Assembly: GCA_965366625.1 (NCBI GenBank)
Contig: CBDUGP010000024.1
Coordinates: forward strand, 3,767 to 67,766
Source: an uncultured bacterium
Lineage (GTDB): Bacteria > Acidobacteriota > Thermoanaerobaculia > Multivoradales > J023
Direction of reading: 5' to 3'
Length of the DNA: 64,000 bases
The position numbers were made by a program, and so were the translations under genes. Below, one piece after another: positions 3,009 to 57,975 of this stretch. The stretch's first letter is position 1, and every line of letters begins with the position of its first letter. Below the pieces are notes generated by a model. That model made no database searches. It saw only the letters and a list, made by a program, of their open reading frames with translations, and was not told where the DNA came from.

Positions 3009-3042
3009 CGGAGCGCCTCGGCGAGGCGCCCGGGTCTTTTCT
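3009..3042 (+). terminator. Putative rho-independent terminator after the M4 protease gene
   Basis: GC hairpin 'ggcgcctcggcgaggcgcc' followed by the T-rich stretch 'cgggtcttttct'. Confidence 0.4.
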
Positions 3043-30563: not shown

Positions 30564-30921
30564 CGGCACATCTAATCGTGGCGTTTTAGGATTCCGCAAA
30601 CTATTGATTGTAAACGGCTTGATGTAAGGGAGGGGCTTGTCCCCTCCCGCTCTTCCTTAAGAAGCGGCTCGGCTTCGCCTCGCCCGGGGGGGCAAGCCCG
30701 GCCCCTACCTCCGGGGGTTTGCGGGCGTAGCCCGCTAAGTGATCTTGTAGTCAGGCCTAGGCATTTTTTCTGTAGCCCCGCTGGGACGATCCGCGTCCCC
30801 GTGGGGCTGTTTGGTTGAATCTCTTTAAACTCTATGTCGTTTGATCCGTATCTCTAACGTTCAGCAGATGCTTTGCCGTTTTTTTTGGATTGCCTCAACA
30901 GCGCCCTTCTGGGGAGCAGAT

Positions 30922-33900: not shown

Positions 33901-34647
33901 AATTTAGGGCGCTGGAGCGAGCTTTTCTTGGAGCTGCCGACCTTGCTCGAACAGGCGAAGGAGCAGGAAGACCTCTACCTTGAAACCCATTTGCACCATT
34001 GGGTCGAGAGCATCAAAGACCTGGTGGAAGACCGTCCGGCGGAGGCGGCGGAGGCTGCTGAAAGTGGGTCGGAAAATTGGTCTCAACAAGGATTCCACTA
34101 CCAACACTTCGGCCATTTGAGTGCCCAAACCCAAGTCTCCCTCTACCGGGGCAAGGGGATCGAGGCCTGGCAGCGCATCGACGCCCGTTGGGTTGAGCTC
34201 ACGGCGTCGATGATCCAGCGGATCGAAATGGTCTGGGTCCAAAGCCACGATTTACGAGGACGGTCCGCCCTGGCCGCCGCGGCAGAGCTTCAAGCGGGAG
34301 GGCGCCTCGCGGAGATGCGTCCGCTGTTGAAGCAAGCGAGCGCCGACGCGCGACGTCTGGACCGCATGGGCACCGCTTGGCCGCTGGCCCTGGCGTCGGC
34401 GTTGAGGGCCGGGGTGGCGTCCCTACGCGGCGAGCCCAACGCGGCTTTGGAGGCGCTGGCGGTCGCGGAAGCAGCGTTCGAATCCGCCGACATGGCGATT
34501 CATGCAGCTGCCGTCCAACGCCATCGCGCCTTGGTCGAAGGGGACGCGCGCGAAATCGAAGCCGCCGACCAAGTGATGGTCGGCGCCGGTATCGCCCGCC
34601 CGGATCGTTTTGCCTTCATGCTTTCCCCCGGCCATTGGGCCCGATAA
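30922..34647 (+). CDS. PknK-like STAND Ser/Thr protein kinase (kinase + P-loop NTPase + TPR/helical sensor region)
   Basis: Kinase motifs 'LGAGAFGVVYEA', 'ALKVL', 'HRDIKPPNVLV' and 'DFGL'. Walker A 'GPSGMGKSAL' and Walker B 'LVLVIDDLQWGD'. A long Leu/Ala-rich helical C-terminus. The ATG at 30922 has a GGGGAG RBS. The longest ORF begins with a TTG at 30841. Confidence 0.8.
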   Translation: MGVPLISTVQATPGSGSEPRIVSDADHFLGTDRFLIQRRLGAGAFGVVYEAYDRRENALVALKVLRLAEADALYRFKKDFRSLADIRHPNLVAFYELMNHDDLWFFSMELIPGVPFDEALRAGLKPGEQPDFERVRSVTAQLAKGLQTVHDHGKVHRDIKPPNVLVTPEDRVKLLDFGLVAELTQGHSAEVEHQMVGTPAYMSPEQANGHVGNPSSDWYSVGVMLYQALLGQLPFEGSLMKILTAKQDGVAPDAIRSRLPEVPEDLEQVCLGFLETDPVERLTGPSALSILGGRLTATSSFKAVEIDIPFVGRERPLAELDDALEASRDKAVVVTVRGPSGMGKSALVARFTDRVLERDPQAVVLSGRCYVQESVPYKAIDNLIDALSRFLMSLPAQEAEVLLPTHIAALARLFPVLARVPSVARAPTTRENHLVEPQILRRRAFAALRELLSRLAVRRTLVLVIDDLQWGDLDSAMLLDELLKAADTLPLLLIGCYRSENEHNSSFLRALSEQRRAFAWRGVDMREIQLGELSNHEARELVQRLGGIADAQADELLSDAEGSPLFLSELARVAGRQASAGFEQSGDSASKVNDLIRLRVGRVSPEAKALLEVVAIAGQPLALEIARQAAGLESGGISAVSELRQERLVRLLDSSEQEVETYHDRIREALTELMSEDQLRALHGRLAEALESSGRADPETLAMHFQATEEVQRASRYAVSAAERAEEALAFDRAARLYELALELGPLDPQRRSDLQVRLGEALGNAGRSRDAAETLLAAVGSGIVDPLEAQRSAAEKLLISGHIDRGLAVLRHVLRTVDLELEPRPWKSLLSLWWWRLRLRLRGFDFKEKAEQKVDTEALRRIDVCWSVVIGLCLVDVLRASEFHVRHLWLALEEGEPQRVARGLAMEVFFGSMEGSGGLAALDRARELAGKVEGRYAASLTEMAAGMLACSKGEWRDAQRRLSRAEMHLRENRRGVTWELDTVRQFRAVALLNLGRWSELFLELPTLLEQAKEQEDLYLETHLHHWVESIKDLVEDRPAEAAEAAESGSENWSQQGFHYQHFGHLSAQTQVSLYRGKGIEAWQRIDARWVELTASMIQRIEMVWVQSHDLRGRSALAAAAELQAGGRLAEMRPLLKQASADARRLDRMGTAWPLALASALRAGVASLRGEPNAALEALAVAEAAFESADMAIHAAAVQRHRALVEGDAREIEAADQVMVGAGIARPDRFAFMLSPGHWAR

Positions 34648-39040: not shown

Positions 39041-39222
39041 GCCGGAATTCTATGGGGCGGGGGAATGGATAGCGAGGGGAGGTAGCCCTTGGTGGGGGCG
39101 GTTTGTACCCGGAGGGAGGGGATAGCAACTGAATGTTGGCTTCGTTGCAACAACTACGGATAACCGTCTATTAACGCAGTTTTGAGTCGATGTCTTTAGG
39201 TGAATCGATATTGGAGGTGAGG

Positions 39223-40455
39223 ATGAGCGAGATCTTCCAGAGAACGGTGCTGCCACAGACACTTAGAAGGATTTTTGACGATCGGCTCTACGAAAATTCA
39301 GGTCCTATAGAGTTTCTAGAGCTATCTGGATGGGATCATCCGCGTTTAGCAGGTTCTACCATGAGCTTCGAGGTGAGTTTCACAGATTTGGAACTTAGTC
39401 GATATGTTCTGGACTACGAGCAACCGAACATCGAGTTTGAGACAATCAAGAAAAACATCGCAACACATTTATCCCTGCTTGAGCTGGGCACCGAGATAAA
39501 TCATAGGCAAATTCAACTCACCTATGGCGGAACAGGAGCACTGAGTCTGCTTTTGCACTGGGTTAAGTCTAAAGGAATTGAGATGGTTGTCGCTGATCCG
39601 CCATTCTATTTCAGCCTTAAACACTTAACAAAGTATCTCAATCTTGATTTGATTGCAGCAGAAAGAAACATCTTAGGACTCCACGACCCGAAACCTCTCT
39701 TGAGAGTCCTCCAAGAACACAAGGCGATACGAAAGGCTGTCTATATTGCTCACCCCCGGTATGTAGTTGGCGGCGCTTACTCAAAAGGTGAGATAGCAGA
39801 AATACTCGCGTGTCTCAGAAGTGATGATCTGCTAATTGTCGACAACTCTATCAATTTGATGATCGAGCAAGACAGCCTTAGTCTAGGGGACCACTCAACA
39901 GTCGCAGTCGTCAAAACGATTGGCAAGTCAATTAGTATGTATGGGTGTCGGCTTGCAGCCATTGTGACCTCAGAGGCGGTGAGAGCCGAACTCAATACAA
40001 TTTCTGAGTGGTTGTTTGGAGGTTACGATGTTGGGATGCTTAGGGTTGCCCATCAGCTAACAGTAAATCACTATAGATTTAAAGAACGAGTGCTAGCTAC
40101 AAGACAGCTTGTTGACGAGTCGTATAGGAACGTCCTGAGCAAGTTGGCGGCGGAAGTCGTGGCCCTGCCAAAGCCGAATTCTACCTATCTAGGTTATGCA
40201 TTGGTTGATACAGATTCTATCGGGAGATATAGGCTGTATCAATTCTTCCTGAGAAACCGGATAAACGCCATGTTTTCTGAACAGATAGGTCTCGCACGAA
40301 TTGCCGGTTTAGATCTCATAAGGATAAACTACCTTCTTGACATCGATAAAGCTGTCGGTCTCCTATCCGATTTCGCGGCACAGGCCAGAAAGAAAGGCTG
40401 CTTCCGATCTGCCTGGGCTCATACTACTTTGGGAAGAAAGACTCTGTCTCGATAG
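39223..40455 (+). CDS. Divergent PLP-dependent aminotransferase-fold (class I/II-like) protein on the islet
   Basis: Strong RBS GGAGGTGA before the ATG at 39223. Candidate PLP-lysine motif 'TIGKSISMYGCRLAAIV', resembling SxSKxxxxxGxRxG. The usual DEVY-type motif is replaced ('IVDNSINLM'). GC is about 45%. Confidence 0.5.
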   Translation: MSEIFQRTVLPQTLRRIFDDRLYENSGPIEFLELSGWDHPRLAGSTMSFEVSFTDLELSRYVLDYEQPNIEFETIKKNIATHLSLLELGTEINHRQIQLTYGGTGALSLLLHWVKSKGIEMVVADPPFYFSLKHLTKYLNLDLIAAERNILGLHDPKPLLRVLQEHKAIRKAVYIAHPRYVVGGAYSKGEIAEILACLRSDDLLIVDNSINLMIEQDSLSLGDHSTVAVVKTIGKSISMYGCRLAAIVTSEAVRAELNTISEWLFGGYDVGMLRVAHQLTVNHYRFKERVLATRQLVDESYRNVLSKLAAEVVALPKPNSTYLGYALVDTDSIGRYRLYQFFLRNRINAMFSEQIGLARIAGLDLIRINYLLDIDKAVGLLSDFAAQARKKGCFRSAWAHTTLGRKTLSR

Positions 40456-40456
40456 A

Positions 40457-42490
40457 CTATGTCTCAAGTTGAAGATCCGCTGTCAGCTCTCGCGACAAGA
40501 GAATTGGTTCTTCGGATTCATCAGAGCACAACCTCATGGCTGCAACACCCAGCTGAAAACAGTATGGTATTTCACGTCCAGCAGCAATCGCCTTGTAGAA
40601 GCCGGACGAGAAACCGACCGCCCCCTCGTCGGAAAGCCTTGAGCTGACACCGATTACAAACGGAGCATGCTGGCTTATCGATCGCGCTTGGGACTCTGAG
40701 TAGCACGCATTTAACACAATGCAGGTTGCTTGCTGTGGCAGTAACTCCAACAAGCGATTCAGTGTTTCGTTCGAGACTGGTCGAGGGTTGCCTGCAGAGT
40801 CTAGAATCATAATTCCATCTTCGGATCCATGCCCAGAAAAATGAATGATAAAGGGTGAGTGCTCCAATGGGACCAGCAAAAAGGTTTCTTCGTCTACAGC
40901 CCATTCTTGCTCCAAGCTGAGGTCTGCGCCCCGGACTCCCGTTCGAAGGGAGTTCCTTATCATCTTTATTTCGCGTTCAAGCTCCAGCTGTGTGCTGTGG
41001 GGGTTGGCACTTAGAAATAATATTACTTCTTTTGATCCCTTTCGGCTCTTGCCCGATTTGTTAGCGACAAGAGATTTCTTGCTCGCTGCCCTCGGTAGTA
41101 GGCCGATGACCATTCTTCGAATTTCGGCCAGTGTAGAAAAATCCAGGCCTGTAGAAAACTTGATACACGCAATCTTGGGGAAGTTCAGCATGACCAAAAC
41201 GGAATAGTCCACTGTCCTGTTGTCAGACTGCCCAAGCGACTGGTGACCTGCGGTCAAGAGAAGTTTTTGTGTCGAAGATTCGTAGTTAGATATCTCCAAC
41301 CGAAATCTGGCCGACAGGAAAACGGCCATTGCAAAAATCATGTTCATGCTGTCCGGCGAAACTAGGGCAGCTAGTGAGGGGGAGTTTAGTTTGAGAACAG
41401 ATTCGACTTCAACTTCAACTCCACTTCCATCGACTAGAGCTTGAAGTTGCCCCGCTGTTGTTTTTTCCGGGACCAGAATAGAAGCCCGAGCAAGTTCCGT
41501 CTGGTCAATTGAGACAAGGCTGCTGGCCGCAACAAGTAGGTTCTCATAGTATTTGCGCAGCTTTCCTGAACAGAACTCCAAGGTTTCGACGACGGTAGAA
41601 GGGAGTTCCCGACCTGAGGCTGTGTCCAGTAGGGCATGAATCGATAGAAAGAGCCTGGTAAGAAAAAACACCATTATTCGGTTCTGTTGATAGAGAGCCA
41701 CCAAGAACGAAGAGAGATGTCTCAGCCCTGAGAGGATATGTAGGATGTTAGATTCCTCAATCTCCGAGAACCTGAGATTGACGGCATCCACCAATTCTTT
41801 TGAGTGATTGAGATCTTTCTCTAAGAAAGCTGCGGCACTAACAGATTCTAAGATTGTTTTTGGGGAAACTTCATCGATTCGAATGCTCAACCCTGATTCA
41901 GGTCGAATCAGGGTTACATGCTCTAAACTAGATCTTTGAAGGCCGAAGTTCTGAAGCACCGAGGGTTCTTGCAATGTTAATTCAATAAAGCGACATTCAA
42001 GTAAAAGGCAATGCTCCAGCAACTTATTGGAAGTTGTACAATTGCGAAATTCACAACCGAAAAGTTTATCGTTTTTAAACGTAGTTCCAGAGAGATCGCA
42101 ATCCCTGAATTTCACATTTTCAAAATGACAATCTACAAAGACTGTATTCCGCAGGCCAGCGTTGACAAAGTCAACATCTCGAAATGTGCATGAGCTAAGG
42201 AGATTGTCGAAGAAATCACAATAAAAATGAACCGAGTTGAAGAAAGTATCTTTGGCGTCAATTTCACAAAAATCCGCATGAAATTCACCAAATTGGACTC
42301 TGCAGGAAATCAGGTTCGGCTCAAATGCGGAGCTTCCCCTGGGAATCGTTCCGCCTAGAAAACACTCAAAGAGTTCGTGAGCTACAATTGGACTATCAAG
42401 CAAACTAAGGTCGATACTGGCGCCTCTCACTATACCGCCTGGGATGTTGCCCTTAAGGTTGCGTGCGGCATGGTCGAGCTTCTTCATCAT
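40457..42490 (-). CDS. Pentapeptide-repeat + CHAT (caspase-like) protease domain protein on the islet
   Basis: N-terminal pentapeptide repeats ('FRDVDFVNAGLRNTVFVDCHFENVKFRDCDLSGTTFKNDKLFGCEFRNC'). C-terminal caspase-like His/Cys dyad ('IIHFSGHG' ... 'CIVLNACYSESQ'). Low GC. Confidence 0.65.
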   Translation of the reverse strand: MMKKLDHAARNLKGNIPGGIVRGASIDLSLLDSPIVAHELFECFLGGTIPRGSSAFEPNLISCRVQFGEFHADFCEIDAKDTFFNSVHFYCDFFDNLLSSCTFRDVDFVNAGLRNTVFVDCHFENVKFRDCDLSGTTFKNDKLFGCEFRNCTTSNKLLEHCLLLECRFIELTLQEPSVLQNFGLQRSSLEHVTLIRPESGLSIRIDEVSPKTILESVSAAAFLEKDLNHSKELVDAVNLRFSEIEESNILHILSGLRHLSSFLVALYQQNRIMVFFLTRLFLSIHALLDTASGRELPSTVVETLEFCSGKLRKYYENLLVAASSLVSIDQTELARASILVPEKTTAGQLQALVDGSGVEVEVESVLKLNSPSLAALVSPDSMNMIFAMAVFLSARFRLEISNYESSTQKLLLTAGHQSLGQSDNRTVDYSVLVMLNFPKIACIKFSTGLDFSTLAEIRRMVIGLLPRAASKKSLVANKSGKSRKGSKEVILFLSANPHSTQLELEREIKMIRNSLRTGVRGADLSLEQEWAVDEETFLLVPLEHSPFIIHFSGHGSEDGIMILDSAGNPRPVSNETLNRLLELLPQQATCIVLNACYSESQARSISQHAPFVIGVSSRLSDEGAVGFSSGFYKAIAAGREIPYCFQLGVAAMRLCSDESEEPILLSRELTADLQLET

Positions 42491-42559
42491 ATCAATAATA
42501 GACGGTTATCCGTAGTTTGCAGAATTTTCTCGGAATTCTGGAGCTGAAACCTGGCTTAA

Positions 42560-43501
42560 TCAACAAGAGGTCAACGAAAAATTCGGGTGAAACTGCTGCA
42601 ATTTCGCGGCTAGGCCTTCTTTCGACACGTGTAGGTACCTTTGTGTGGTGGCGATGGATCGATGGCCTAGGAATTCTTGGACGATTCGGATGTCGGCGCC
42701 TTGGTCGAGCAGCATGGTCGCGATGGTGTGTCGGAGCATGTGGGGGGTGACTCGCTGCGCGATGCCGGCTTCTTCGGCGATGCGTCGGATCGAGTTGGCG
42801 ACGCCTTGGGTGGAGAGCGGGCGTCCGAAGACGTTGACGAAGAGGTGGTTGTGGTCGGTGGTCAATTTGATGCGTTCTTGACGATAGCTTTCCACGGCTT
42901 GGCGTGAGCGAGGGTCGGTGAGTAGGGCCACTCGTTGTTGGCCGCCTTTGCCGTGGATCAAGAATTCGTGGAGTTCGGGCTGGTAGTCGCTCAGGCGTAG
43001 TGCGGTGAGTTCGCCGACTCGAATGCCGGTGGCGAAGAGCAGCTCGATGACCGTCCAATCTCTGAGATCGAGAAAGCCGCGATGCAGGCGGGTCGGCACG
43101 GGTTGCTCGAAGGTCGTGACGCGCGACCGTGCTTGTTGCAGCAGTTTTTGGATGTCCGGCAGGTTTAAGCATCTCGGTAGTTGTTTTTGGTGCTGTAGAT
43201 CCAAGCGGATCCGCCAAAGTGGCGAAGCGTCTAAAACTCCCTTTCTGACCCAATATCCAAAGAAGACCCGAAGCGCTGCGAACTTACGGCGAATCGAGCT
43301 GGGTGCGTATTCCTCGAGTCGCAGGAAATCTGCCCATGCTTCCAGCTGGTCCGGCTGAACTTCGGTCACCTCTTGTGTCGGTTTCAAGAACCGATAGAAT
43401 TGTAGCAGATCGATCCGATATGCGCGCTGGGTTCTATGGCTTCGGCGACATGTCGAGAAGTACCCCTCGTGGAATTTTTCGATGGCGATGTCTAGCAGCA
43501 T
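42560..43501 (-). CDS. Tyrosine site-specific recombinase (XerC/XerD-like integrase)
   Basis: 'HMLRHTIATMLLDQGADIRIVQEFLGHRSIATTQRYLHV' with the catalytic R...HxxR...Y. 313 aa. Confidence 0.9.
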   Translation of the reverse strand: MLLDIAIEKFHEGYFSTCRRSHRTQRAYRIDLLQFYRFLKPTQEVTEVQPDQLEAWADFLRLEEYAPSSIRRKFAALRVFFGYWVRKGVLDASPLWRIRLDLQHQKQLPRCLNLPDIQKLLQQARSRVTTFEQPVPTRLHRGFLDLRDWTVIELLFATGIRVGELTALRLSDYQPELHEFLIHGKGGQQRVALLTDPRSRQAVESYRQERIKLTTDHNHLFVNVFGRPLSTQGVANSIRRIAEEAGIAQRVTPHMLRHTIATMLLDQGADIRIVQEFLGHRSIATTQRYLHVSKEGLAAKLQQFHPNFSLTSC

Positions 43502-43788
43502 CTCTTGCTCCTCACGCTCCCGGCTGCGCCAATCGTAGCTTTGGGTCGTTTAGTCGATTGATTTAGTTCTATTTAGGCGAGAATTTTCTGCATTGGCGAG
43601 AAAAGCATAGCAGCCGGTGGCGCGGGATCGCCGGCTCCTGGGGGCCCCGAAGAATGCCCAAACCGTCAACGAGCCTCCGAGAATCGGGCTTCCAAGAAGC
43701 CTCGGGTCTTGCATCTCAAAACGGATCCCCGGTTCCTCGATGGTGTCGACTTCGACCGTGTCGACGTAGAGCGTGCCGAAATGTTCGA

Positions 43789-43925
43789 CTAACGAGCTTC
43801 CGACCACATCCGAACCCAACCCTCCAGCGCCCCGATCTCCACCTTCAACTCGAGGTCGAGTTGGGTTAGCCACTCGTCATTGAAGCGATCGATACGGGGT
43901 CCCTCGGGCTCGGATCCACACCTGT
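43789..43925 (-). pseudogene. Remnant of a duplicated 5' end of the vWA gene (right-hand att-like repeat)
   Basis: It encodes '...EPEGPRIDRFNDEWLTQLDLELKVEIGALEGW', homologous to residues ~20-60 of the 36518..39040 product. The signal peptide is missing. Confidence 0.55.
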
Positions 43926-44572
43926 GCAGGGTTATTGCCAAGCGCATTAAACGTTGGCACAAACGATAGACAAATACCTTCCAAGGTGCATGAAAATATT
44001 TAGTTATACAAAGACGCTGATCTTTGCGAGGTGGCCATTTTTCCGCGTAGAAGCTGGCGATTGCGGGGCCACCAGCCTGTGGATTGGGCGGGGATTGGAG
44101 GCAAAACCAAACTCTCTGCTTATCCTTGCGGCATGGGTTTTGCTTCCTGTAGGGTGGGAACATTGGAGACCTGATTAACATCAGGTAACATCCGTCTCCA
44201 TCCCGTCGGGGAATGTCGCCAACCGAGGAAAAATGACCAGCCTGGAATTTTTTACCTGGAATGATCGAGTTCAACTATCGCTACCCGAGGAGATCTGAAG
44301 ATCCCATGGCATCTCAAATTGATACGAAGAAACCCAACCGAAGCTCAGTGCCGTCCTCCCAGGGCTCGAATTGGAAGAGACCCTATTCCAAGCCACGGAT
44401 TCTTTTCACAGAAACTATTGAAGCTATGGCGACCAGCTGTCTGACACCGGGCGGAAAAACCGATCCGATCCAGTGCCCATCGGGTCCCCTTCAAAGTTGA
44501 TGGAACTCGCGGTTCACATCCGAGAATGCTAGTCCATCAAGCAATCCCCCCGCTTCAAGGAAGAACAAGCCC

Positions 44573-47500
44573 ATGAGACGTTTTTTGAGCCCATCCCAGG
44601 TCGGAATGCTCCCCGGACACCTCAGTGTCGTTTTCTTTTTCTGGCTCCTCGTCTTGGGCTCCGTCCCCGGAACGGCTCAGCTCCGGCAGACGTTCTTCGT
44701 GCCTCTGGATGAAACCCATGTTCGGGACATCGGTTTCGCCATTACTTCCGCTGCGGGTGATACGACCCATGCTGTGATCTCGTTGTCGGCCACGGCGAAC
44801 GGAACCACGGTCTATTACGATCATTGGGAGGACGGCTACGAAGCCGACCTGGAAAATCCGGTCCAGGCTTCGACCGAGACTTTCCTGCTCGACGCCGGCG
44901 GATTCGTCGCCCTTGAAGACGATATCGACGTCAATCCTCGGGATCCCTTGATTATCGAATATGACGGCCGAGACAAGATCGGGGCGACCGAGCAAATCGC
45001 GGTCACCCGGGCCGGCTGGCGTCTTGCGGAATCCACTTTGTTGGCCGGCGCCATCGAGGTTTTCCCGGTCATTGATTGGGGACAATTCTTCGAGTTTCCC
45101 CTCGGCGAGGACATTGTTTCGAGCCAAACCTTCGAATATGTTGCTGCGTCGATCATGGCCGGCGAAACCGGTGCCATCTTCGATATCGACAGCGACGGTG
45201 ACGGCACGGTGGACTCCACCATCACCCTCCTGCCGGGTGAGACGACCCTGGTCACCGGAATCAACACCGGAGGCACGATCGCTTCGTCCGACCCCCTGCA
45301 GGTCAAGCTGCTCACCGGTGATTTGGGCAGCACCTTCGCATCCCGATGGTACGACTTGGTGTCCACGGAGATTTGGGGCTCGAGCTACTACAGCCCTGTT
45401 TCATCGGTGCCCACATCCGAGAACCGGATCTTTCTCTACAACCCGGGCTCCTCGTCGATCACCGTCACCCACGAGACGATCAGCGCAACGGTGACCACAC
45501 GCACCTACGACAACACCACCGCCGGCACGCTCGATGAAACCGTGGCGCCTTGCGGCGCACCGATGGTTCGCACCTTTACGGTGCCAGACACCTTTACCGT
45601 CAATGCCGCTCGGCTCGGCTTCAACGCCACCCATACCTATCGCGGTGACATCCAAGTCACATTGATCTCTCCCGGCGGCACGAGCCGGACCGTGATCGCT
45701 GCCAATGGTGGCGACGGAGACGATAACTATGACGTCTTGCTCGACGGCACCTCAGCCAACCCCCTCGACGACGGCAATGCCGACACGACCGCTGCGCCTT
45801 TTTATGATCGATCCGCGCTGAGTCTCATCGACTTTCCCGGCGAAGCCGCGAATGGTGTCTGGACGTTACAGATTTGCGATTCCTTTGGCGGTGATGCCGG
45901 TACGTTCAACAGAGCCCAACTGCAGCTTGACGAAGCCACGGGTACGACCATCAATACCGGTACTGTGGCAGTGGCAGCGAGCGGCATCACTGAATTCTCG
46001 GTGCCCCTGAACTCGGCGGCCCATTTCTTCACCGCCACGGGCGAGACTTTTTTCGCCACCGCGGCGGTCGATTGGAACGACACCAGCTCCGATTGGGGTT
46101 TCACCCTGCTGCCGGAAGAAGCTCTGGCAACCACTATCGTCACCGGCTGGGCTCCGGGACGCGACCCCGCATCGGGCGTCAATCCGACTGAGAATGGGAG
46201 CCCAATTTGGGTCACAGCCACCGGCGCGACCGATCTTTATGTGGACTACGACGGCGATCCGTCCACCGGCGCTTTGGTGGACTCCAACGGCAATCGCTAC
46301 GACGAACTCGTAGCCATCACCGAGCTGGAATCCGTCAGGCTCTTTGATCCCAACGATACGGACCAGAATCGTGTTCGGGTCTACACCCTGGACCAGACCT
46401 TGATCGCCGCGGCGTGGGGGCAAGACGCGGTCAACGCCAGCGCCGCAGCCCCGGCCATTGATGTTGGCACCACGGTGGTTCCCTTGGACGCCCTGAGGGC
46501 GCTGAAAGAAGGCAGCCTGCTCAACGATGCGGATGGCGACGGTGCCTTAGGTCCGGGCGACACCATGCGCTACACCATCGTCATCAGCAATGTTTCTGAA
46601 GCGGTGGTGACCGGCGCCACGGTAGAAGACTTTGGGCTCGATTCAAATCTGACCTATGTGGCCGATTCCACGGAAATCGACGGCCTCGCCATTGCCGACG
46701 ACGCCATCGGCGTCACGATCTTTCCCCTCGATGAAGGTGGCCAGCCGCTTTCCACCATCGGCATCGGCGAATCCGTCACCGTCACCTTCGCGGTCCAAAT
46801 CGCCGATCCCCTGCCCGTTGGGGTCGAAAGTCTGTTGAATCAAGTCCGCGTTTCCACTTCGACCCAAATCGAGGTCGGCTCAACCCTGACGACGATTCTT
46901 GCCCCCGCTCTGTCGATCACCAAGACCTCGAATGTGGTCGGCGATGTGGTGGCGGGTCAGACCATCGAGTACACGGTCACGGTCAATAACATTTCCGCGG
47001 GTCCTGCCCGGGGCATCAAGATTCTCGACACCCTGCCCGCGGGAACGACCTACAACGCCGAATCCACCGTGGCAACCGGATTTTCGGACGTTTTCTTAGG
47101 CACGGAGACGGTTACCGATGAGCCGGCCGGCGGTATTGCCTTCGACTCCGGATCCAATCCATGCGGCGGCACGCCGGTCACCCGGACCTTTACGGTGGCC
47201 AATTCCTTTACCGTGTCCGACGTGGATCTCGGCTTCAATGCGGATCACACTTACCGCGGCGATATTCAGGCGGTGCTCGAATCACCCGCCGGAACCCGCA
47301 TCACCGTCTTGACCGGTATTGCAGACCCTGACAACAACTACGACATCGTGTTGGACGACGAATCCGTCAACCCACTGGACGACGGAACTCCGGATAATAC
47401 CGCTGCCCCCTTCTACGATCGCGACGTGATACCCAATAACGCCTTGTCCGGCTTCGACGGCGAAACCTCGGTCGGCACCTGGACCCTCGAGATCTGTGAT

Positions 47501-50500
47501 GACGCCGGGGGCGATAGCGGCACCTACAACCGGGCGCAGCTGCGCGTTTCCGGCTCCAATTCCGCCGCGCAGTCCCGTACCAACCAGGCAGCGGCGATTA
47601 ATCCGCTGCTCGATGGCGATCCCACCAACCTGGTGTTGGCACCGGACGGCTTTGGCCTGCTTCCCGGCCAGGTCATGACCACCACCTACCAAGTGACGGT
47701 GGAAGATCCTTTGGCCTTCAGCACCACGGCGATCACCAATACGGCCCGGGTCACCAGCCTGGAGCAGCCCGAACCGCTGACCGCTACGGTGGTCGATCCG
47801 GTGACCGAAGGGGCGGCCATCGGGGATCGAGTTTGGCTCGATGCCGACGGCGACGGTTTCCAAGATGTCGGTGAGACCGGCATCGCCAATGTCACGGTAA
47901 ATCTCTACGATCCGGGCGGTGACGGTGCTCCGGGTGGGGGCGACGACACCCTGATCGGCTCGGTGACCACCGACCTCAACGGCATTTACCTCTTCGACCA
48001 TCTGCCGGCCGGCTCGTACTTCGTCGATGTCGATGGCGCCACCCTTCCACTGGGGCTGACGACCTCACCGGGCACCACGGATCCGAGTTCGGTGATCACC
48101 GTGACGGCAGAGGAAATCCGCCTCGACATCGACTTCGGTTATACCAACGCCGACGGTGGGACCGCGATCGTCGGTGATCGGGTGTGGTCCGACTTCGACG
48201 GCGACGGCATCCAGGATCCCGGCGAGCCGGGCATCGGCGGGGCGACTGTCGAGCTGCTCGACGACACCGGCAGTGTGGTGACCACCGTGATCACCTCCGA
48301 CGATGGCGCTTACCTCTTTACCGGCGTGGCTCCAGGGGAATACCAAGTCCGGATCGCGGCCAGTAACTTCTCAGGCGGCAACGCCCTCGACGGTTATACC
48401 GTCACCACCGGGCCCCAAAGCGAAGGCGCCAATACCAGTGATCCCGTGACCTTGCTCGCCGGCGACGTGCAAACCGACGTCGATTTCGGCTACCAGAACG
48501 TGGCGTCGACCTATTCCATTACCGACGCGGTTTGGCTCGATGTGGACAGCGACGGCGCTTTCGATCCCTCGGAGTCCGGCATTGCCGGCACGACCGTCGA
48601 TCTGCTCGACGCTTCCGGTGATGTGATCGCCACCACCCTCGTGGCCGCCGACGGCTCGTTCTCCTTTGATGGCGTGGAGCCCGGTAGCTACACGGTTTCG
48701 ATCAGCGACAACAGCGGCAAGCTGATCGGCTTGGCCGGCACCACCAGCGCGGGAACGGCTCGCCAACTGGCGGTGACCGTGGTCGCGGCCGATGTCACCG
48801 GCCAAAACTTCGGCTACAACGGCGAGGCCTTGTTGGGAGACCGCATCTGGTCCGACGCCGATGGCGACGGGGTGCAAGACGAAAACGAGGTCGGCCTAGC
48901 GGGTGTGACCGTTGAGCTTCTAGACCGGCTCGGCGCGGTGATTGACACCACCACCACCGACGCCTTTGGCGACTACCTCTTCGACGGCATCTCACCGAAT
49001 CAATACACCGTGCGGGTCGACGCAACGTCGCTGCCGGCGGGCTTCACCCAGACCGGTGATCCGGACGGCACCCTGGACCACCAATCGGCGAGTGTGTTGA
49101 CCATTGGCGATGCGGATTTGGTGCTCGATTTCGGCTATCGGAACACGTCGCTGGCGGACATTTCCGGCAATGTGTTCTCCGATTTCGACCGCGACGGCAT
49201 CGACGACGGCGTGGGCGAGCCCGGTTTCACCGGGGTGTCGTTAGCCCTGCTCGACAGCTCAGGCAACGTGGTCGCCACGGTCAAGACCGACGCCAACGGG
49301 GATTACACCTTTGCCGACCTGCCGGCAGGCAATTACACCGTACAAGTGACCGACGATAGCGGTGTTCTGGCCAACCACGAACTCACCAGTGGTCTCGATT
49401 CCGTGCCCGTGACTCTGGCCGGTACCGACATCACCGATATCGATTTCGGTTACGCCCGTAATTCCGGCACCGGCGCCATCGGAGACTATGTTTGGCTCGA
49501 CGCCGACCGAGACGGCGTCCAAGACGCCGGTGAGAGCGGCCTGTCGGGGGTCGATGTCGACCTCTACGACGTCGGTCCCGACGGCGCGGTCGGCGGCGGT
49601 GACGATGTGCTGATCGCCTCGACCACCACTGACGCCAACGGTGGTTACATCTTCACCGGCATCGCCCCGGGCGCCTACTACGCCGATGTGGACGGCACCA
49701 CCGTTCCCGCCGGCTTGGCGACCACCAGCGGTACCACCGTTCCGTCCGGCATCGTTTTGCTTTCCGAAGGTGAGCTGATCGACGACCTGGACTTCGGTTA
49801 CGGCGGCACCCCCGGCTCGAGCGCCATCGGCGATCGAGTTTGGGCCGACGTCGATGGCGACGGTATCCAAGATCCCGGTGAGATCGGCATCGGTGGCGTG
49901 ACGATCACCGTGGTCGGTCCGTCCGGCACGTTCACCACGACCACGGCCGAAGACGGCTCCTGGCTGGTGACCAGCCTGGCACCCGGCACCTACACCGTGA
50001 CCGTGGATTCCTCGACGTTGGCGAGCGCCTACGACACGGCGCCGACCAACGGACCCGCAAGCCGGGAGTATGAGGTCACCTCGTCCGCCGACGTGCTGAC
50101 CGCCGATTTCGGCTTCGACGGCGCGATCCTCGGCTCCATCGGTGATCTCGTGTTCCTCGACGAAGACGGTGACGGCTCTCAGGGAGTCGGTGAAGCCGGC
50201 ATCGCTGGAGTCACGGTCGACCTGCTGGACTCGGGCGGCAACTTGGTGGCAACCACCACCACGGACGAAAACGGTGCCTACGACTTCATGGGCCTGCCGG
50301 CTGGTGACTACCAAGTCCGGGTGAGTGACGTCGGCCAGGTGCTGACCGGGCTCAACCTGTCCTCGGGCAGCAATCCCACGGCGACGATCAATTTGGCTGC
50401 CGGTCAGGACTATGACGACGCCGACTTCCCCTATGCGCCGTCCTCAGGCTCCGGCAGCATCGGCTCGATCGTATGGAACGACCAGAACGGCGACGGGGAT

Positions 50501-53500
50501 CGGGACGCGGGGGAGCCGGGGCTCGAAGGCGTGACGCTGGCCCTGTGGCACGACATCAACGGCAACGGTGTGATCGAGCCGGGAACCGACAATCTGTTGC
50601 GCTCGACCACCACGGATGAGAACGGCGAATACGAATTCGTCGGACTCTTGCCCGCGGATTACCTGGTCGACGTCACCGATACTTCGGGCGTGCTCACCGG
50701 TTTCACGAAAACCGCCGGCGCCGCCGGGGTCAATGACAATAGCCAAGCAGATCCCTACGCCGTCACGCTGACCACCGGCAGCCCGAGTGACGACACCGCG
50801 GACTTCGGCTACCAAGCCACCACCCCGCGCGCCATCTCGGGCACGGTCTTTGGCGACGACAATTCGGACGCGAGTCAAAACGGTGGGGAAGCGGGAGTCT
50901 CCGGCGTGCCCGTGATCCTCTACTTGGATCTCGACGGTGACGGCGTGATCGATCCCGAAGATCCGCAGATCGCCTCCACCACCAGCGACGGCAGCGGTGA
51001 CTATGCATTCACCGGTCTGCCCGACGGTCGCGACTACATCGTGGCCGTGGAAACCACGGATACGGCCGTCGCGGGTGAGACCCAGACGACCCAAACCGGC
51101 ACCGCCGGCGTGCAACCGGTGACCCTCTCCGGCGCCGACTCCACAGGCAACGATTTCGGCTTTGTGGACTCGGCTCCCGAAGTGGTGAATCCGGCGGTGA
51201 TCGGCGACCGCGTGTGGCTCGACACCGACGGCGACGGCATCCAAGACGTGGGCGAGCCGGGCATTCCGAACGTGGATCTCGAAATCTACGATGTCGGTCT
51301 CGACGGCGTCCCGGGCGGCGGAGACGACGTGCTGGTGGCGACCACGACCACCGGCGCTAACGGCTCCTACAGCTTCGGCGGCCTCGACGCCGGCACTTAC
51401 TTTGTGGACGTGGTCGGAGCGAGCGTGCCGACGGGTCTCAGCACTTCGCCCGGCACCAGCGACCCGAGTTCCGCGGTGACCGTTGCCCTCGGTGATGTGA
51501 TCGATACCGTGGACTTCGGCTACACCACCACCGCCGACGCGGTGGTCGGCAACTACGTGTGGTCCGACGCCGACAATGACGGCCAGCAGGATCCCGGTGA
51601 ATCGGGCATCGGCGGAGTGACCGTCGATTTGCTGTCCGCCGGCCCTGATGGTGTGTTCGGCACCGGTGACGACGTGGTCGAAGCCACCACCACGACCACC
51701 GACGACGGTTGGTATCTCTTCACCGGCGTTACCGCCGGCGAATACCGTGTCGACGTCACGGACACGGGCACGGTGCTCACCGGCTACAGCCTGTCCACCG
51801 GCCCGCAATCTTCCACCGATCCCACGGATCCGTTTACGGTCGCGGCCGGCGACGTCTTCCACGACGCTGATTTCGGCTATCGGAATCCGGGACTCTTCGA
51901 CATCTCCGACCGCCTGTGGCAAGACATCGACGGCGACGGTACCCAGGATCTGGGGGAGTCCGGCCTCGCCGGAGTGACGATCAACTTGCTCGACGATTCC
52001 GGCGATGTGATCGCCACCACTGTCACCGACGCCGCCGGCGATTTCACCTTCCCCGATCTGCCCGACGGCAGCTACACCCTGTCGGTGTCCGACACCGGCG
52101 CCGTGTTGCGGGAATTCGTCGGCACCACGCCCCCGGCCACCGCCGACGCCTTGGCGGTGGTGTTGGCCGGCGCCGACGTTGCGGCGGTGAGCTTCGGTTA
52201 TAACCAACCGGGCATCGTCGGCGACACGGTCTTCTCCGACAGTGACGGTGACGACGTGCAAGACCCCGGCGAGCTGGGCCTCGGCGGAGTGACCGTCGCC
52301 CTTTGGCAGGACGCCGACGGCAACGGCATCTTCGATTCCACCGTCGATACCTTCGTCGGCAACCAAGTCACAGCCGCCGACGGCAGCTACCTCTTCGAAG
52401 GCTTGGGGCAAGGAACGTTCTTCGCCTCGGTCGATCCCAGCCAACCGGCTCTGACCGGTTATTCGGCGACCACTCCCGACCAGGAGGGTGGAGCGAATGC
52501 GGCCGGAGTGCAGGTGGAAGCCACGCTGGCCAATTCCGCGGCGAGCTACTTAGCCGCCGACTTCGGATTCCAAAACACCGCGTTGCCCGACGTGTCCGGC
52601 AACGTTTTTGAAGATCTCGATCGCGACGGCGTCGACGATGGCGCCGGCGAAGCCGGTTTTGCCGGAGTCACCGTGGAGCTGCGCAACGCTTCCGGCACCG
52701 TGGTCGCCACGGCCATCACCGACTCCAGCGGCGACTACACCTTCCCCGACGTCCCCGCCGGCAATTACACCGTGGCGGTGACCGACGGGCATGGCGTGCT
52801 CGACGGATATCTGCTCACCAGCAGCCTCGACGAGGTGCCGGTGGCCGTGGCCGCTTCCGACATCACCGGCATCGACTTCGGTTACGCCCGCGACGCTTCC
52901 ACCGGCTCGATCGGCGATCGGGTGTGGCTCGACAGCGACGGGGACGGTATCCAAGACGGTGCTGAGACCGGTCTCGGCGGTGTGACCGTGGAGCTTTACG
53001 ATCCGGGTCCGGACGGTGCGGTGGGGGGCGGTGACGACGTGCTCGTCGATACCGCGACCACCGACTCCAACGGCAACTATGTCTTCCCGGGGCTCGGTGC
53101 GGCCACCTACTACGCCCAGCTCGATACCTCGACTTTGCCGAATGGCGGCAGTGGTTTGGTGACCACGACCGCGGATCCCACGGCGATCATCGCCCTATCC
53201 GAAGGTGAGAATTACCGCCAAGCCGACTTCGGCATTACCAGCGGACCCACCACCGGCGCGATCGGTGATCGGCTGTGGTTCGATGCCGACGGCGACGGCT
53301 TGCAGGATCCGGGTGAGACGGGAATCGGCGGGGTCGAGGTGGTGCTGACGGGACCCGGTTGTGCGCCGTGTACCGCCACCACCAACGCTGACGGTACGTA
53401 CCTATTTACCGGCCTTGCGGCCGGCGACTACAAAGTGAACTTCAATCCGGCGACCCTGCCGGCGATCTACGATCCCAATCCGACCAACACCACCGGCAAC

Positions 53501-56500
53501 ATCGACGTCGACGGTTTGGCCGGCGGGGATCTGGTCACCAACGCGGACTTCGGCTTCACCGCCGCCGGCGCGGTGGGCTCGATCGGCGATCTGGTCTTCC
53601 TCGACCTCGACGGCGATGGCGTGTTGGACGCCGGCGAGCCGGGCATCGAAGGGGTGACCGTCGACTTGTTGGATGCCGCGGGCACCACGGTCTTGGCCTC
53701 CACGACGACCGACGCCGACGGCAATTACAGCTTCCTCGGTCTCGATGCCGGCACCTTCCAGGTGCGGGTCACCGATACTGCGAGCGTGCTCGTCGGGCTG
53801 AATCTTTCGTCGGGCTCCAATCCCACCGGCGCCATTGGTTTGGCCGCAGGTCAAAACTACGTCAACGCCGACTTTGGTTACGCGCCGTCCGGCGGCACGG
53901 GCTCGATCGGCAATTTGGTATGGCACGACGTCAACGGTGACGGCGATCGCGATGCCGGCGAGTCGGGCATGCAGGGCGTGACTCTGGAGCTGTGGAGCGA
54001 TACCAACGGCAACGGGGTGATCGAACCCGGCATCGACAATTTGGTGCGCACCACCACCACCGACATCAACGGCGAATACGTCTTCAACGGCCTGCCCGAC
54101 GGCGATTACCTGGTGGACGTGACCGACGAGGTCGGCGTGCTCAACGGTTTCACCAAAACCTCGGGCACAGCGGACACGAACAACAACAGCCAAGCCGATC
54201 CTTATGCGGTCACTGTCGGCGGTGGCAGCGTCGAAACCGCCGACTTCGGTTATCAAGCCGGCACCAACTTCGACATCCTCGGCACCGCCTTCTTCGATGT
54301 CGACGGCAACGGCATCGAGGATCCGGTGGACTTCGGGGTCGAAGAGGTGGAGGTCTACCTCTACATCGACTTGGACGGCGACGGCGTGATCGATCCGGAA
54401 GATCCCCGGATCGGCACGACCACCGTAGATTCCAACGGCAACTATCTCTTTGAGGACTTGCCGGACGGCGATTACGTCGTGTCGGTCGACGCCGGCGGCA
54501 CGTTTGTCGACGGTGGGCTGCAAACCACTCAAACCCTGACCAATAGCGTCGAGCCGGTCGTTTTGTCCGGTGCCGACTCGGTGGACAATGATTTCGGATT
54601 CAATCGTCAGGCGACTTTGGCCCTGGTCACCGATTTGAAGGCGTGGTCCTCTGGCGCGGGCACCGTGCTCGAATGGCAAACCGTCGCCGAGGCCGGCACC
54701 GCCGGCTTCCGGGTTTACCGAATCGAAGGTCGACAACCGATTTTGGCCAGCGAGTTCGTGCTGTCGCCGGCCGCGCCCCAGGGCTCGCGTTATCGCGTTA
54801 CCCTTGCCGGCGCCCAAGGTCTCGAGCTGCGGGTATTGTTGGAAGAGCTCGAACGCTCCGGTGTGTCGCGCCTTTACGGTCCGTTCCAGGTGGCGATCGA
54901 AGGTTCTGAGCCGTCCGGCTCCCGTTCGGTCACCAAGACCGGCGAACTCCAAGGACGAGGTTTCGAAGCCGCGCCTTTGGCTCCGGACGCTCGACGGGTC
55001 CAAGCCGGCAAGTCCGCCATCGTTCCGAGCTCGAAGGTGGCCGGCGACCGGCTGCGGGTGATCGTCGATCACGACGACCTCTACGTGATTCCCACGGCCA
55101 CCATCGCCGATGGCCTCGGTCTCGACTTCGGCGAAACCCGCCGGGCCATTGATCAGGCTGGGTTGCGACTGACGCGGGCGGCGGAGACGGAGGTCTCCTA
55201 TCTGCCGGTGGACGAGGGCTTGGCCTTCGTCGGCAGGGCCCTTCGAGACCAGGTCTACACCGACAGGGAAGTCTATTGGCTGGAGATCGGCCCGGGCCGA
55301 CACATGGCTGAAATCGCTGCCGACTCGGCCACGCCTGCGGCTGACGGTAGCCTGCGTCATCACGGTCACTTCGAAGAAGATGTGTTTGCGGCCACCTTCG
55401 TGGCCAGGGACCCGAATCTCGATTATTGGCATTGGCGCGGCTTGATCGCCGGTCACGGCACCTATGGTGTGACCGACTTTTCGCTGGCCTTGCCGGAGCT
55501 GGTTCCGGCTACCGACGCCACGCTCACGGTCCACTTCCGCGGTGCGGGTTATACCGCCGTACCCCAGGAGCATCACGCTCGGTTGAGCCTCGACGGCCAG
55601 CTGGTCGGCGAGACCTATTTCGATGATCTCAACGATCACAGCGCCACTTTTGAGCTGGCTGCGGGTGTTTTGACCGACGGAGCCACCCTGCGGGTTGAAG
55701 CTTTGTTGGACACCGGCGCGCCGAGCAGCTTCTTCTATGTCGACTCCTACGAGCTCGACTTCGAGCATCGCACCCGGGCTTCGGACGAGCGCTTCGAGGG
55801 CAGCTTTGGCGACACGGCGGAGGTCACGGTGGAGGGCTTCAGCGCTTCCGACCTGTTGGTGCTCGACACCACGGATCCAGAAGATCCGGCGAAGATCCAA
55901 AACGCTTGGATCGATGCCAATCGTTCGACGGTGTGGGCCACTTTCGGGCGCCCGGTAGGAGCCCAATCGTTCCGAGTCCAGAGCCTGGCCTCGGCGGCCA
56001 CGCCGGAGGTGATCCCGAGCTTCCGGTCGACCCTATTGGATCGATCCAACGCCGGGGCCTACCTGGTGATCGCTCCGGAAAGGCTCATGCAACCGGCCCA
56101 GCGATTGGCGGATCTGCGCCTCGCGGACTTCGGTTCCAGCCGAGCGGTATCGCTGCAAGAGATCATGGACGAGCTGGCGGGCGGACGATTCCACCCGCCG
56201 GCCATCGGTGACTTCTTGGCCTACGCCAAGGCCGAGTGGTCCGTGCCACCCACCCACGTGGCGCTGTTGGGACGAGGCAGCTTCGACTATCGAGATCTTC
56301 AAGGGCAAGCGGCCGATCCGCTACCGCCGTTGATGACCAGCACGCCTTACGGCCTCTACTCCTCGGACGGCGGCTACGCCGATGTCGACGGAGACGGTCG
56401 TCCCGATGTGGCTTTGGGCCGCATCCCGGCGGCCACGGCCGAAGAAGCGGACGCCTACATCGATCAAGTGATCGCTTACGAAGCCTCCTTCGGCTTGTGG

Positions 56501-57160
56501 CAACGGCGCGTCCTGCTGCTGGCGGACAACGACGACATGGGCGGCGATTTCTCCTCGGAAATCCAGCAAGTGGCGTCCCAGCTGTCACCGGAGCTACAGG
56601 TGGAGACCGGCTTCCTCGGTCTCGAAGGCGTCGGTGGGCTACGTGATCGTCTGACCGGCGCGCTCGATCGAGGGGTCGGGCTGGTGGACTGGATGGGTCA
56701 TGGCGGCCTGGATCGACTGGCGGAAGAAGGACTGCTGCTGAGCGCGGACGTGGCGCAGATGCAACACGTGAATCAACCGATCTTCGCCTTGCTCTCCTGC
56801 AACGTGGCTCGCTTCGAGCTGCCGGGATTCTGGAGCCTGGCCGAGGATCTGGTGCTCGCCGAAAGCGGCGGCATCGCGGTTATCGCACCCTCCGGTCTGG
56901 CCCTCGACATCGACAGCTTCGATGCCAATCAGATCCTCATGGAGGAGCTGTACAGCGGCGGTCACAACACCTTGGGTCAGGTCTTCCAAACCATGATTCA
57001 GCGCTTCGTAGGCGTCGCCCGCCTACCCTCCGATCCGCAGGTCTACATGCTCATCGGCGATCCGGGATTGCGAGCCGGCCAGTCCGGGCTTCCCGGAGCC
57101 CTGCTATTCGCCGATGGCTTCGAGACCGGCGATACGTCTAGGTGGAGTGCTCAGCCCTGA
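44573..57160 (+). CDS. Giant (4195 aa) secreted surface protein: 2x proprotein-convertase P-domain, DUF11-like repeat, about two dozen SdrD/Cna-B-type repeats, C-terminal peptidase C25 (gingipain-like) domain
   Basis: AAGGAAG RBS and signal peptide. P-domain signatures ('[17 protein letters not shown]...GVWTLQICD', present twice). Recurrent '[22 protein letters not shown]..VTVEL...TTTDANGNYLF' units. C-terminal His/Cys dyad ('VDWMGHGG' ... 'ALLSCNV' ... 'IGDPGL'). Confidence 0.85.
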   Translation: [4195 protein letters not shown]

Positions 57161-57975
57161 GCGACTTGGGCTCGAACCAGCTCAGGGTCCTTGCTCAGGA
57201 TCAGCAGGCGTGACCAGCGATGCCGTGGCCAGGACTTGCGGAAGCTCACTATTTGGTGGGGAATTCCTTCGAGCACCTCTAAGCGATCGAAACGATCGTG
57301 CAAGGTGAAGGCCCCGATCGAGCGCTCGTGCATGAGACTTAAGATGTCCGGAAGGAAGTGCTCGATCGACCAGTGGAAACCCACTGCAAAGAAGGAGTAG
57401 ATGAAGTCGTAAGGTCCGGGCATTTGGCCCAATTTGGCGTCCATGTCGGCGGCGTCGAAGATCTCGACCTCGTCGATGTTGTTGTGGGATAGGACCCTCT
57501 GCAGCGCTTCCAGGTTGCCGCAGAACGAATCTTTGAATCGCGGCCCGGCTTTGGTGTAGCGGGTGCTCTCACCGGTGCTTTCGTAAAGGTGGAAGGGCAC
57601 TTGCTGCCATTGCATCTTTTTCTTGAAGAAAACCACTGAGCGCCCCATGCCCGGGCCGATGTCGAGCACTTTGGAAGGGGTGGGGATACGTTCCAGAAAG
57701 GGTGCCAATGCTTCGTGCTCGCCCCAAGAAAGCCCGTTCTGATTGAGCTGCCAGAATCGGCGAGATTTCTCGTCGGCCGAGAGATGAAATTGCGGCGAGA
57801 TGAGTTTGATCGCCCCCACCAGATCGGGCTCAAATGGAGGAGCTTCAAAGATCAGCTCCTTTTCCCTCAGTTCAGGCTCGAGTTCGGAAATCGAGTGCCC
57901 CAGGCGGAGCCGTTTGCGTAGCTTGGTCGCGATGCCATGAAGAACACTGCTCATAGGTCGACGATTGCTGGGCAT
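57151..57975 (-). CDS. Class I SAM-dependent methyltransferase
   Basis: Motif I 'VLDIGPGMGRS'. 274 aa. The 3' end overlaps the giant gene by 10 nt, convergently. Confidence 0.65.
   Translation of the reverse strand: MPSNRRPMSSVLHGIATKLRKRLRLGHSISELEPELREKELIFEAPPFEPDLVGAIKLISPQFHLSADEKSRRFWQLNQNGLSWGEHEALAPFLERIPTPSKVLDIGPGMGRSVVFFKKKMQWQQVPFHLYESTGESTRYTKAGPRFKDSFCGNLEALQRVLSHNNIDEVEIFDAADMDAKLGQMPGPYDFIYSFFAVGFHWSIEHFLPDILSLMHERSIGAFTLHDRFDRLEVLEGIPHQIVSFRKSWPRHRWSRLLILSKDPELVRAQVAQG

Follow-up and report, generated by a model that had tools for sequence, protein, structure and literature searches.

A giant adhesin-like protein of an uncultured acidobacterium ends in a PorU-like C25 module and is encoded downstream of a putative precursor-peptide gene

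What is a cysteine peptidase doing at the end of a surface-type protein of more than four thousand residues? The question is raised by a 64-kb stretch of DNA from an uncultured Acidobacteriota bacterium (contig CBDUGP010000024.1, hereafter the window), in which an open reading frame (ORF) of 12.6 kb, starting with ATG (nt 44573–57160, + strand), encodes 4195 aa followed by a stop codon. A sequence-only reading of this DNA had proposed a giant surface protein, with a gingipain-like peptidase of family C25 displayed at the tip of a stalk as in adhesin or bacteriocin-like giants. To our knowledge, C25 peptidases are known almost only from the gingipains of Porphyromonas and from PorU, the sortase of the secretion system known as type IX (T9SS). 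The analysis reported here shows that the window protein is conserved and built like a fibrillar adhesin, predicts its export, and suggests that a small peptide encoded just upstream is probably the specific partner of its C25 module, the activity of which the head and stalk would place.

The giant gene is real and is under purifying selection along its entire length. It was the sole long ORF at the locus in the ORF listing, with no long competitor. In a metagenome-assembled genome (MAG) of the Thermoanaerobaculia (L001), a genome scan revealed a colinear ortholog; it is 4203 aa long and 79.4% identical over the full length. In a second Acidobacteriota MAG (L002), a relative spanning the stalk and the C25 part shared 54% identity. 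The source organism is thus probably a Thermoanaerobaculia-like diderm. The ratio of non-synonymous to synonymous substitution rates (dN/dS) between the window gene and L001 was 0.157 overall, and ranged from 0.05 to 0.35 by region, with a dS of about 0.9. It is the combination of this ratio with a colinear ortholog that establishes the gene as real and constrained. What the sequence-only reading had observed of the protein was confirmed, apart from the number of stalk modules given below. The flanks of L001 and L002 shared no synteny with the window.

The N-terminus of the protein reads MRRF, then the hydrophobic segment LSVVFFFWLLVLGSV, then PGTAQ, which is signal-peptide-like as had been claimed. 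A Sec-type signal peptide would thus cover aa 1–36 (nt 44573–44680, + strand), with cleavage predicted after TAQ. This region is conserved in L001 and aligns with the signal region of protein P0020, and the mature start QTFFVP is common to homologs. The protein is therefore probably Sec-exported. It is another member of the class labelled in databases as “C25 family cysteine peptidase” or “SdrD B-like domain-containing protein”.

The C-terminal catalytic domain was identified with confidence. It occupies aa 3830–4167 (nt 56060–57073, + strand) and matched Pfam Peptidase_C25 (PF01364) with an E value of 4.1e-57 and 194.5 bits, against a cut-off of 23, the match covering positions 1–373 of the 374 of the profile. 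The two catalytic residues are His4043 (nt 56699–56701), in VDWMGHGG, and Cys4076 (nt 56798–56800), in ALLSCNV; in the alignment to PorU, they fall on its GHGG and TC motifs. Both were 100% conserved in 138 aligned representatives of the family; a number of positions held by Asp, Arg or Gly were invariant too, and so was an N-terminal W-T-E-GF-R motif. A C25 domain with an intact His/Cys dyad had been predicted, and the prediction was confirmed.

The conserved unit proved larger than the peptidase. Upstream of the catalytic domain, an FN3-like domain, a small alpha/beta domain and beta-sandwiches complete a module of aa 3345–4167 (nt 54605–57073, + strand). When the last 865 aa were compared by sequence to the PDB, the only match was PorU (6za2, E value of 1.2e-15). 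The best NCBIfam model for the module was likewise PorU (NF033707, E value of 4e-51), although its score of 173.8 bits lies under the equivalog cut-off of 420; the PorU2 model scored 93.7 bits for a cut-off of 450. The AlphaFold2 model of the module, computed from a 65-sequence alignment, had a mean predicted local distance difference test score (pLDDT) of 91.2 and a predicted template modelling (TM) score of 0.91, only the last 25 residues being disordered; a 5-sequence alignment had given an unusable model (pLDDT 57). In a Foldseek search with this model, PorU 6za2 was again the top match (E value of 8e-28, 798–814 aligned columns, TM-score 0.46), whereas the gingipains aligned with the catalytic part alone (about 366 columns). 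The last ~820 aa are, in the predicted structure, one compact and conserved multidomain unit, which is closer to PorU than to gingipains, its best PDB, NCBIfam and fold matches all being PorU.

Likeness to either group has its limits. PorU, the C-terminal signal peptidase and sortase of the T9SS of P. gingivalis (MEROPS C25), resembles the module in its His/Cys motifs and in the order of its domains over ~800 columns. It is an exported, surface-located protein, and the predicted model of the module shares its overall multidomain fold. However, the TM-score is only 0.46 and the root-mean-square deviation 10–12 A, so that domain packing appears to differ. The window protein also lacks the T9SS C-terminal domain (CTD) and the extra C-terminal domains of PorU, and its source belongs to a phylum for which no T9SS is reported. 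Moreover, its module is fused behind a 3,300-aa adhesin-like region and belongs to a family linked to a peptide cassette, described below, neither of which is a feature of PorU. With the gingipains RgpB and Kgp, only the catalytic fold is alike (target-normalised TM-scores of 0.59–0.66 over ~366–394 columns, 15–19% identity). By Pfam, the window protein is devoid of Propeptide_C25, of the C25 Ig-like C-terminal domain, of haemagglutinin/adhesin domains and of a CTD, and its catalytic domain lies at the C-terminal end, whereas that of gingipains is near the N-terminus. “Gingipain-like” is therefore too narrow for the ~820-aa unit as a whole.

The module is followed by an unstructured tail of aa 4168–4195 (nt 57074–57157, + strand; pLDDT ~40), which contains the tag LLFADGFETGDTSRWSAQP. 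The tag follows the pattern [LI]Fx[DN][GD]FExG....W...P, ending at the stop codon, and is found at the extreme C-terminus of the L001 giant (nt 12584–12619 of that contig) and of proteins P0130 and P0253. It also ends an unrelated FG-GAP/Big_5 protein of L002 (nt 17818–19461, - strand), and it may be a lineage-specific or lineage-wide sorting or recognition tag. A type IX, type I or other C-terminal secretion signal had been suggested for verification; inspection of the C-terminus with Pfam, NCBIfam and a motif check found no T9SS CTD, no type I signal or RTX array, no LPXTG and no PEP-CTERM, and the conserved disordered tag stands there instead. The sole match to the T9SS CTD model TIGR04183 (56 bits, aa 1554–1598) falls inside module 5 of the SdrD_B stalk, and was rejected as cross-similarity between beta-sandwiches.

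An exhaustive search with aa 3345–4195 against cluster representatives was made to delimit the family, word-indexed homolog searches having been insensitive for this module (9 and 17 matches). At E≤1e-3 it detected 11,176 representatives, of which 3,024 remained at E≤1e-30. The whole ~820-aa stretch was covered in all of the top 150 relatives. Within 158 relatives, the module ended at 30 residues or less from the C-terminus in 139, while the preceding part varied from 10 to 5375 aa. What stays constant across this very large, uncharacterised family is thus the C25 module, placed almost without exception at the C-terminal end. Of 25 members sampled at random, 11 had SdrD_B domains and seven had DUF11 domains, so that the association of a stalk with C25 is a common design in the family. 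Passages of PMC5445135 and PMC10202324 describe the T9SS as confined to Bacteroidota; the protein clusters defined by the PorU-like module, thousands in number, come from environmental bacteria in which this system is not expected. One MAG contig (L089) carries the 3′ end of a C25 gene (nt 1–654, GHSG...C...GDP) and, 415 nt after it, the start of a head/CLIPPER gene homologous to the window giant (nt 1070–3799), so that tandem occurrence is possible; no peptide of the kind considered next was found on this contig.

A small gene precedes the giant gene. It encodes 64 aa (nt 44306–44500, + strand; an alternative ATG is at 44261) and ends 72 nt upstream of the giant ORF, no terminator-like site being found between the two. 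Its product, MASQIDTKKPNRSSVPSSQGSNWKRPYSKPRILFTETIEAMATSCLTPGGKTDPIQCPSGPLQS, resembles the precursors of RiPPs (peptides made on the ribosome and modified after translation): it combines a YxxPx[IL] leader motif with two Cys and ends in Ser. No Pfam or NCBIfam model matched this product at E≤1. It matched a hidden Markov model (HMM) of the peptides encoded beside C25-module genes with an E value of 5e-15, as a type-B-like peptide, and it was paired with the peptide of locus L005 by reciprocal tblastn (E value of 3e-7). When the window was translated in all six frames, the leader motif pattern came up a single time, at this gene. No Rfam match was obtained between 38 and 64 kb of the window, nor a sigma-70-like promoter in nt 43400–44700.

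Iteration of the peptide HMM over loci with a C25 module gave 39 small ORFs, 37 of them distinct, which had no match in Pfam or NCBIfam at E≤1. They are 55–65 aa long; the [YW]xxPx[LIVM] leader motif is present in all 37 distinct peptides and the C-terminal Ser in 34. Two types were recognised, type A (..YEKPRLRxIELAAEEVLxxGCK..C..C..GS, then stop) and type B (..RPYERPRILSREPLEAVAAVCAPxPPAKxNPGxCPxGPISS, then stop). In a neighbour-joining tree of the modules, type A and type B loci fell in separate clades, which is consistent with co-diversification of peptides and modules. Homologous peptide genes were found directly upstream, and on the same strand, of the three nearest giants with readable upstream DNA (L091, L092 and L093), the modules of which are ~40% identical to that of the window giant. 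The gap from peptide to giant gene is 180 nt for P0132 (4215 aa), which has no cassette within ~4 kb on either side, 10 nt for P0131 (4542 aa), where an ScmC-like gene is divergent upstream, and 144 nt for P0134 (3179 aa), which has genes for a radical S-adenosylmethionine (radical-SAM)/SPASM enzyme, a PqqD-like protein and an ScmC-like protein directly downstream.

This last arrangement is widespread. In the shorter members P0002, P0003 and P0004, the C25 gene is followed each time by PqqD, a radical-SAM/SPASM enzyme, an ORF of 55–59 aa and an ScmC-like (HprK-related) protein, and an S26-like peptidase often also belongs to the cassette. HMMs built from these proteins were used to scan 79 metagenome loci carrying the module. 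At least one cassette gene (PqqD, radical-SAM or ScmC-like) was adjacent in 48 of the 79, and in 37 of the 55 loci with at least 1.5 kb of downstream sequence. The best NCBIfam matches of the cassette proteins were to mycofactocin, PqqE, NirJ and ScmC/D/E/F models, all far under the equivalog cut-offs. The family thus resembles the known radical-SAM/SPASM plus PqqD systems (SynChlorMet Scm, mycofactocin, pyrroloquinoline quinone) in the PqqD-like, radical-SAM/SPASM and ScmC-like proteins beside its members, and in peptides made of a YxxPxL-type leader and a Cys-containing core. It differs from them by these low scores, and the window itself has only the peptide gene. In the searchable literature, no paper linking C25 peptidases to radical-SAM cassettes or to those of RiPPs was found, and ScmC and SynChlorMet likewise returned nothing relevant.

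Two side observations were made at cassette-related loci. Just upstream of P0002, a 163-aa gene (L003, nt 9523–10014, + strand) encodes an NCBIfam post-PEP-CTERM-1 domain (35.6 bits for a cut-off of 28), and Bac_transf and Wzy_C genes lie near the module of L005. These are hints that some family members are linked with exopolysaccharide or exosortase loci.

What role might the module then play in the window organism? By analogy with PorU, it would be an active, site-specific endopeptidase or transpeptidase. The upstream peptide would partner with it specifically: it would be a substrate that the module cleaves or transpeptidates, in the manner of other clan CD enzymes such as PorU, or else a small subunit that the module binds. 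A subunit role can be envisaged by analogy with quinohemoprotein amine dehydrogenase (QHNDH), whose gamma subunit is radical-SAM-crosslinked and is matured by QhpD. A radical-SAM system would modify the peptide, its genes being in that case encoded elsewhere in the genome, and the head and stalk would position the activity on, or away from, the cell surface. Other features of the protein are those of the fibrillar-adhesin-like class, namely a signal peptide, a terminal non-repeat head and tandem stalk domains. As for the peptide system, the window has the C-terminal module with its motifs and dyad, and the adjacent peptide, and is without the adjacent cassette.

Several observations weigh against this interpretation. 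No radical-SAM, PqqD, ScmC-like or S26-like gene was found in the 64-kb window, which extends 44 kb upstream from the giant gene and 6.8 kb downstream from it, and none of the cassette genes lies beside the orthologs in L001 and L002, so that modification of the peptide in the window organism stays hypothetical. In the neighbour-joining tree, the window, L001 and L002 share a deep clade with cassette-less loci. Three related stalk and C25 loci (L007, L008 and L090) have no detectable upstream peptide, L007 and L008 being 2x long-read assemblies with frameshifts; nor was a peptide present upstream of P0253, whose N-terminus differs. The peptide carries no recognisable export signal, while the C25 protein is predicted to be Sec-exported, and no transporter was seen in the cassettes.

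A broader proposal can be made for the family as a whole, which we regard as tentative and on balance somewhat doubtful. The module, the Cys-containing peptide and the cassette would together form an undescribed and widespread system outside Bacteroidota and the T9SS, in which an exported clan-CD transpeptidase acts on, or carries, a radical-SAM-crosslinked peptide. Removal of the leader, cyclisation of the peptide, or its ligation to a surface molecule are conceivable actions, and giant adhesin-like proteins would deliver this chemistry at the end of a stalk of ~80 nm (our estimate, at ~4 nm per module). A PorU-like module outside the T9SS, used as a constant C-terminal unit in combination with a radical-SAM peptide system whose peptide family is not catalogued, appears to be undescribed. 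Should the link be functional, it would open up modified peptides of a new class, or else a surface enzyme of a new, peptide-dependent kind, give a substrate lead for an orphan enzyme family, and account for the role of some giant Acidobacteriota surface proteins.

The alternative closest to the sequence-only reading is a gingipain-like degradative protease at the tip of the stalk, serving for protein feeding or for attack on cells, to which the peptide would be irrelevant. The intact dyad agrees with it, as does the absence of a cassette near the window giant. The window also encodes a secreted M4 protease, an SBP_bac_5 protein and TonB-dependent receptors, which would fit a proteolytic lifestyle. 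However, the module is matched best by PorU, whose action as signal peptidase and transpeptidase is site-specific, and the propeptide, Ig-like and adhesin domains of gingipains are missing. A free-standing degradative or bacteriocin-like protease is made less likely by the peptide gene, conserved upstream of four giants, and by the family-wide link to the radical-SAM cassette. We therefore consider this alternative unlikely; from the earlier comparison with adhesin and bacteriocin-like giants, the adhesin-like exported stalk protein is what remains.

A PorU-like transpeptidase could also act close to the cell. In this alternative, the C25 module would be a cell-proximal sortase or anchor, which attaches the adhesin or other surface proteins covalently to a component of the envelope, and the head would be the distal adhesive tip. 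Fibrillar adhesins have their sorting or anchor domains at the C-terminus, which is where the module lies; PorU, which it resembles in its whole fold, is a surface-held sortase; and an unrelated secreted protein ends in the same conserved tag. Against it, there is no T9SS CTD in the giant and no T9SS partner (PorV, PorZ, PorQ) was seen among the ORFs scanned in the 64-kb window, the system being reported only in Bacteroidota in the articles cited above. Family members with almost no N-terminal part would have nothing to anchor, and no candidate substrates with a common cleavable signal were identified. We judge this scheme quite improbable. Finally, that the small upstream ORF is a chance or unrelated gene and the radical-SAM link a neighbourhood accident is very hard to credit and largely refuted, since its shortness, its lower-GC intergenic location and an upstream region unreadable in the exact ortholog (L001 begins 10 nt before the gene) are set against the HMM and tblastn scores, the single occurrence of the motif, the recurrence of the peptide at this position and on this strand in three more giants, and the cassette frequency given above.

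The remaining 3,300 residues, which would position the activity of the module, consist of a head region and a stalk. The first part of the head covers aa 37–302 (nt 44681–45478, + strand; 44% identity to aa 17–329 of P0020) and the second part aa 458–650 (nt 45944–46522, + strand; 48% identity to aa 329–519). Between them lies P-domain 1, aa ~303–457 (nt 45479–45943, + strand), with a Pfam P_proprotein match at aa 348–451 (E value of 8e-14). Because residues 17–302 and 458–650 of the giant align to the contiguous residues 17–519 of P0020, P-domain 1 is, as judged from this alignment, an insertion into a conserved head domain. Two DUF11/CLIPPER domains follow, at aa ~661–764 and 780–836 (nt 46523–47182, + strand; Pfam DUF11, NCBIfam TIGR01451), and then P-domain 2, at aa ~882–991 (nt 47216–47545, + strand), with P_proprotein matches on both halves of a split query. 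At the DNA level, the two P-domains form a direct repeat of 73% identity. DUF11 is now named CLIPPER, a CnaA-like, isopeptide-bonded stalk domain of fibrillar adhesins.

Two P-domains and a DUF11-like repeat had been recognised from the sequence, and Pfam agreed, DUF11 being present in two copies. The lack of a subtilisin domain, which P-domains normally accompany, had been taken as an oddity, and this did not stand. The head recurs in over 100 “conserved repeat” proteins (DUF11/TIGR01451), whose sources include Chloroflexi, Cyanobacteria and Acidobacteriota. Many of these homologs combine PF01483 with DUF11, GEVED, SdrD_B or C25, and no subtilase is listed for them, so that the situation is ordinary in this class. 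The head domain has no Pfam match of its own. PF17517 (IgGFc_binding) was considered for it and not confirmed, as the head gave no match at E≤1, whether native or after removal of the P-domain, and only the homolog P0033 did.

The stalk consists of 20 SdrD_B modules, of the CnaB type and Ca-binding (aa 1082–3344, nt 47816–54604, + strand; 1057.7 bits in Pfam), and not of the roughly two dozen first announced. Each of the 20 has an acidic Dx[DN]x[DN][GDA] loop, as is typical for SdrD B domains that bind Ca. They are arranged in two blocks of ten (aa 1082–2208 and 2209–3344), such that module i shares 42–71% aa identity with module i+10, and other pairs 30–55%. The DNA copies are 60–75% identical and form a super-repeat of ~3.44 kb with 71–73% identity, and Tandem Repeats Finder reported no array in the stalk DNA. 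The “extreme repetitiveness” noted initially is thus true of the motifs, and is not borne out by the identities between modules or copies. L001 has retained all 20 modules, with stalk indels that total only 3 residues. Since the repeats have diverged and the 79%-identical ortholog keeps every one of them, the view that the gene is prone to expansion or contraction is contradicted; by these sequence comparisons, the repeats are an old 2 x 10-module duplication held by selection. Repeat-rich giants are not necessarily unstable, the 20 modules having here been kept across species.

The signal peptide, head, CnaA/CnaB-type stalk and Ca-binding loops are alike in the CLIPPER/SdrD_B fibrillar adhesins, including the staphylococcal MSCRAMM SdrD. 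The window protein nevertheless scored far below the NCBIfam thresholds for SdrD (930 versus 2500 bits) and SdrC (576 versus 1700 bits), and differs from the MSCRAMM adhesins by the absence of LPXTG and by a C-terminus that is an enzyme module and not a sorting signal.

Directly upstream of the giant gene, the segment of nt 38000–44500 has a GC content of 0.475–0.55, versus ~0.60–0.65 elsewhere in the window, and may mark an island boundary. It holds genes for a tyrosine recombinase (nt 42560–43501, - strand), a 677-aa pentapeptide-repeat protein (nt 40457–42490, - strand) and an aminotransferase. In L005, too, a similar XerC/D-like gene is present, 7 kb away from the C25 gene. An ORF at nt 43789–44274 (- strand) was discarded as spurious, having no matches and a non-protein-like sequence. 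On the other side, a 274-aa ORF (nt 57151–57975, - strand) is convergent with the giant gene, the two overlapping by 10 nt at the stop of the latter. This ORF bears a class-I methyltransferase signature, which is weak (VLDIGPGMGRS; Methyltransf_23, E value of 0.005), and has no counterpart beside L001 or L002.

Further genes of the window are located at nt 1131–2963 (+), 3978–5495 (-), 11576–14152 (+), 28218–30563 (+), 30841–34647 (+) and 36518–39040 (-). Among their products are the secreted M4 protease, which is thermolysin-like and has an FTP propeptide, the SBP_bac_5 protein, of the peptide type, the two TonB-dependent receptors, a 1268-aa Ser/Thr kinase fused to an AAA_16 ATPase, and an 840-aa protein with VWA and Big_7 domains. 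A LolA-like protein is encoded as well. Two tandem paralogs, of 1877 aa (nt 14491–20124, - strand) and 1863 aa (nt 20281–25872, - strand), each combine CBM_4_9, six Big_7 and PKD domains. They share 72% protein identity overall, whereas the 2.2 kb encoding their C-terminal ends are 95.8% identical at the DNA level, a difference that suggests recent gene conversion in this part of the two genes.

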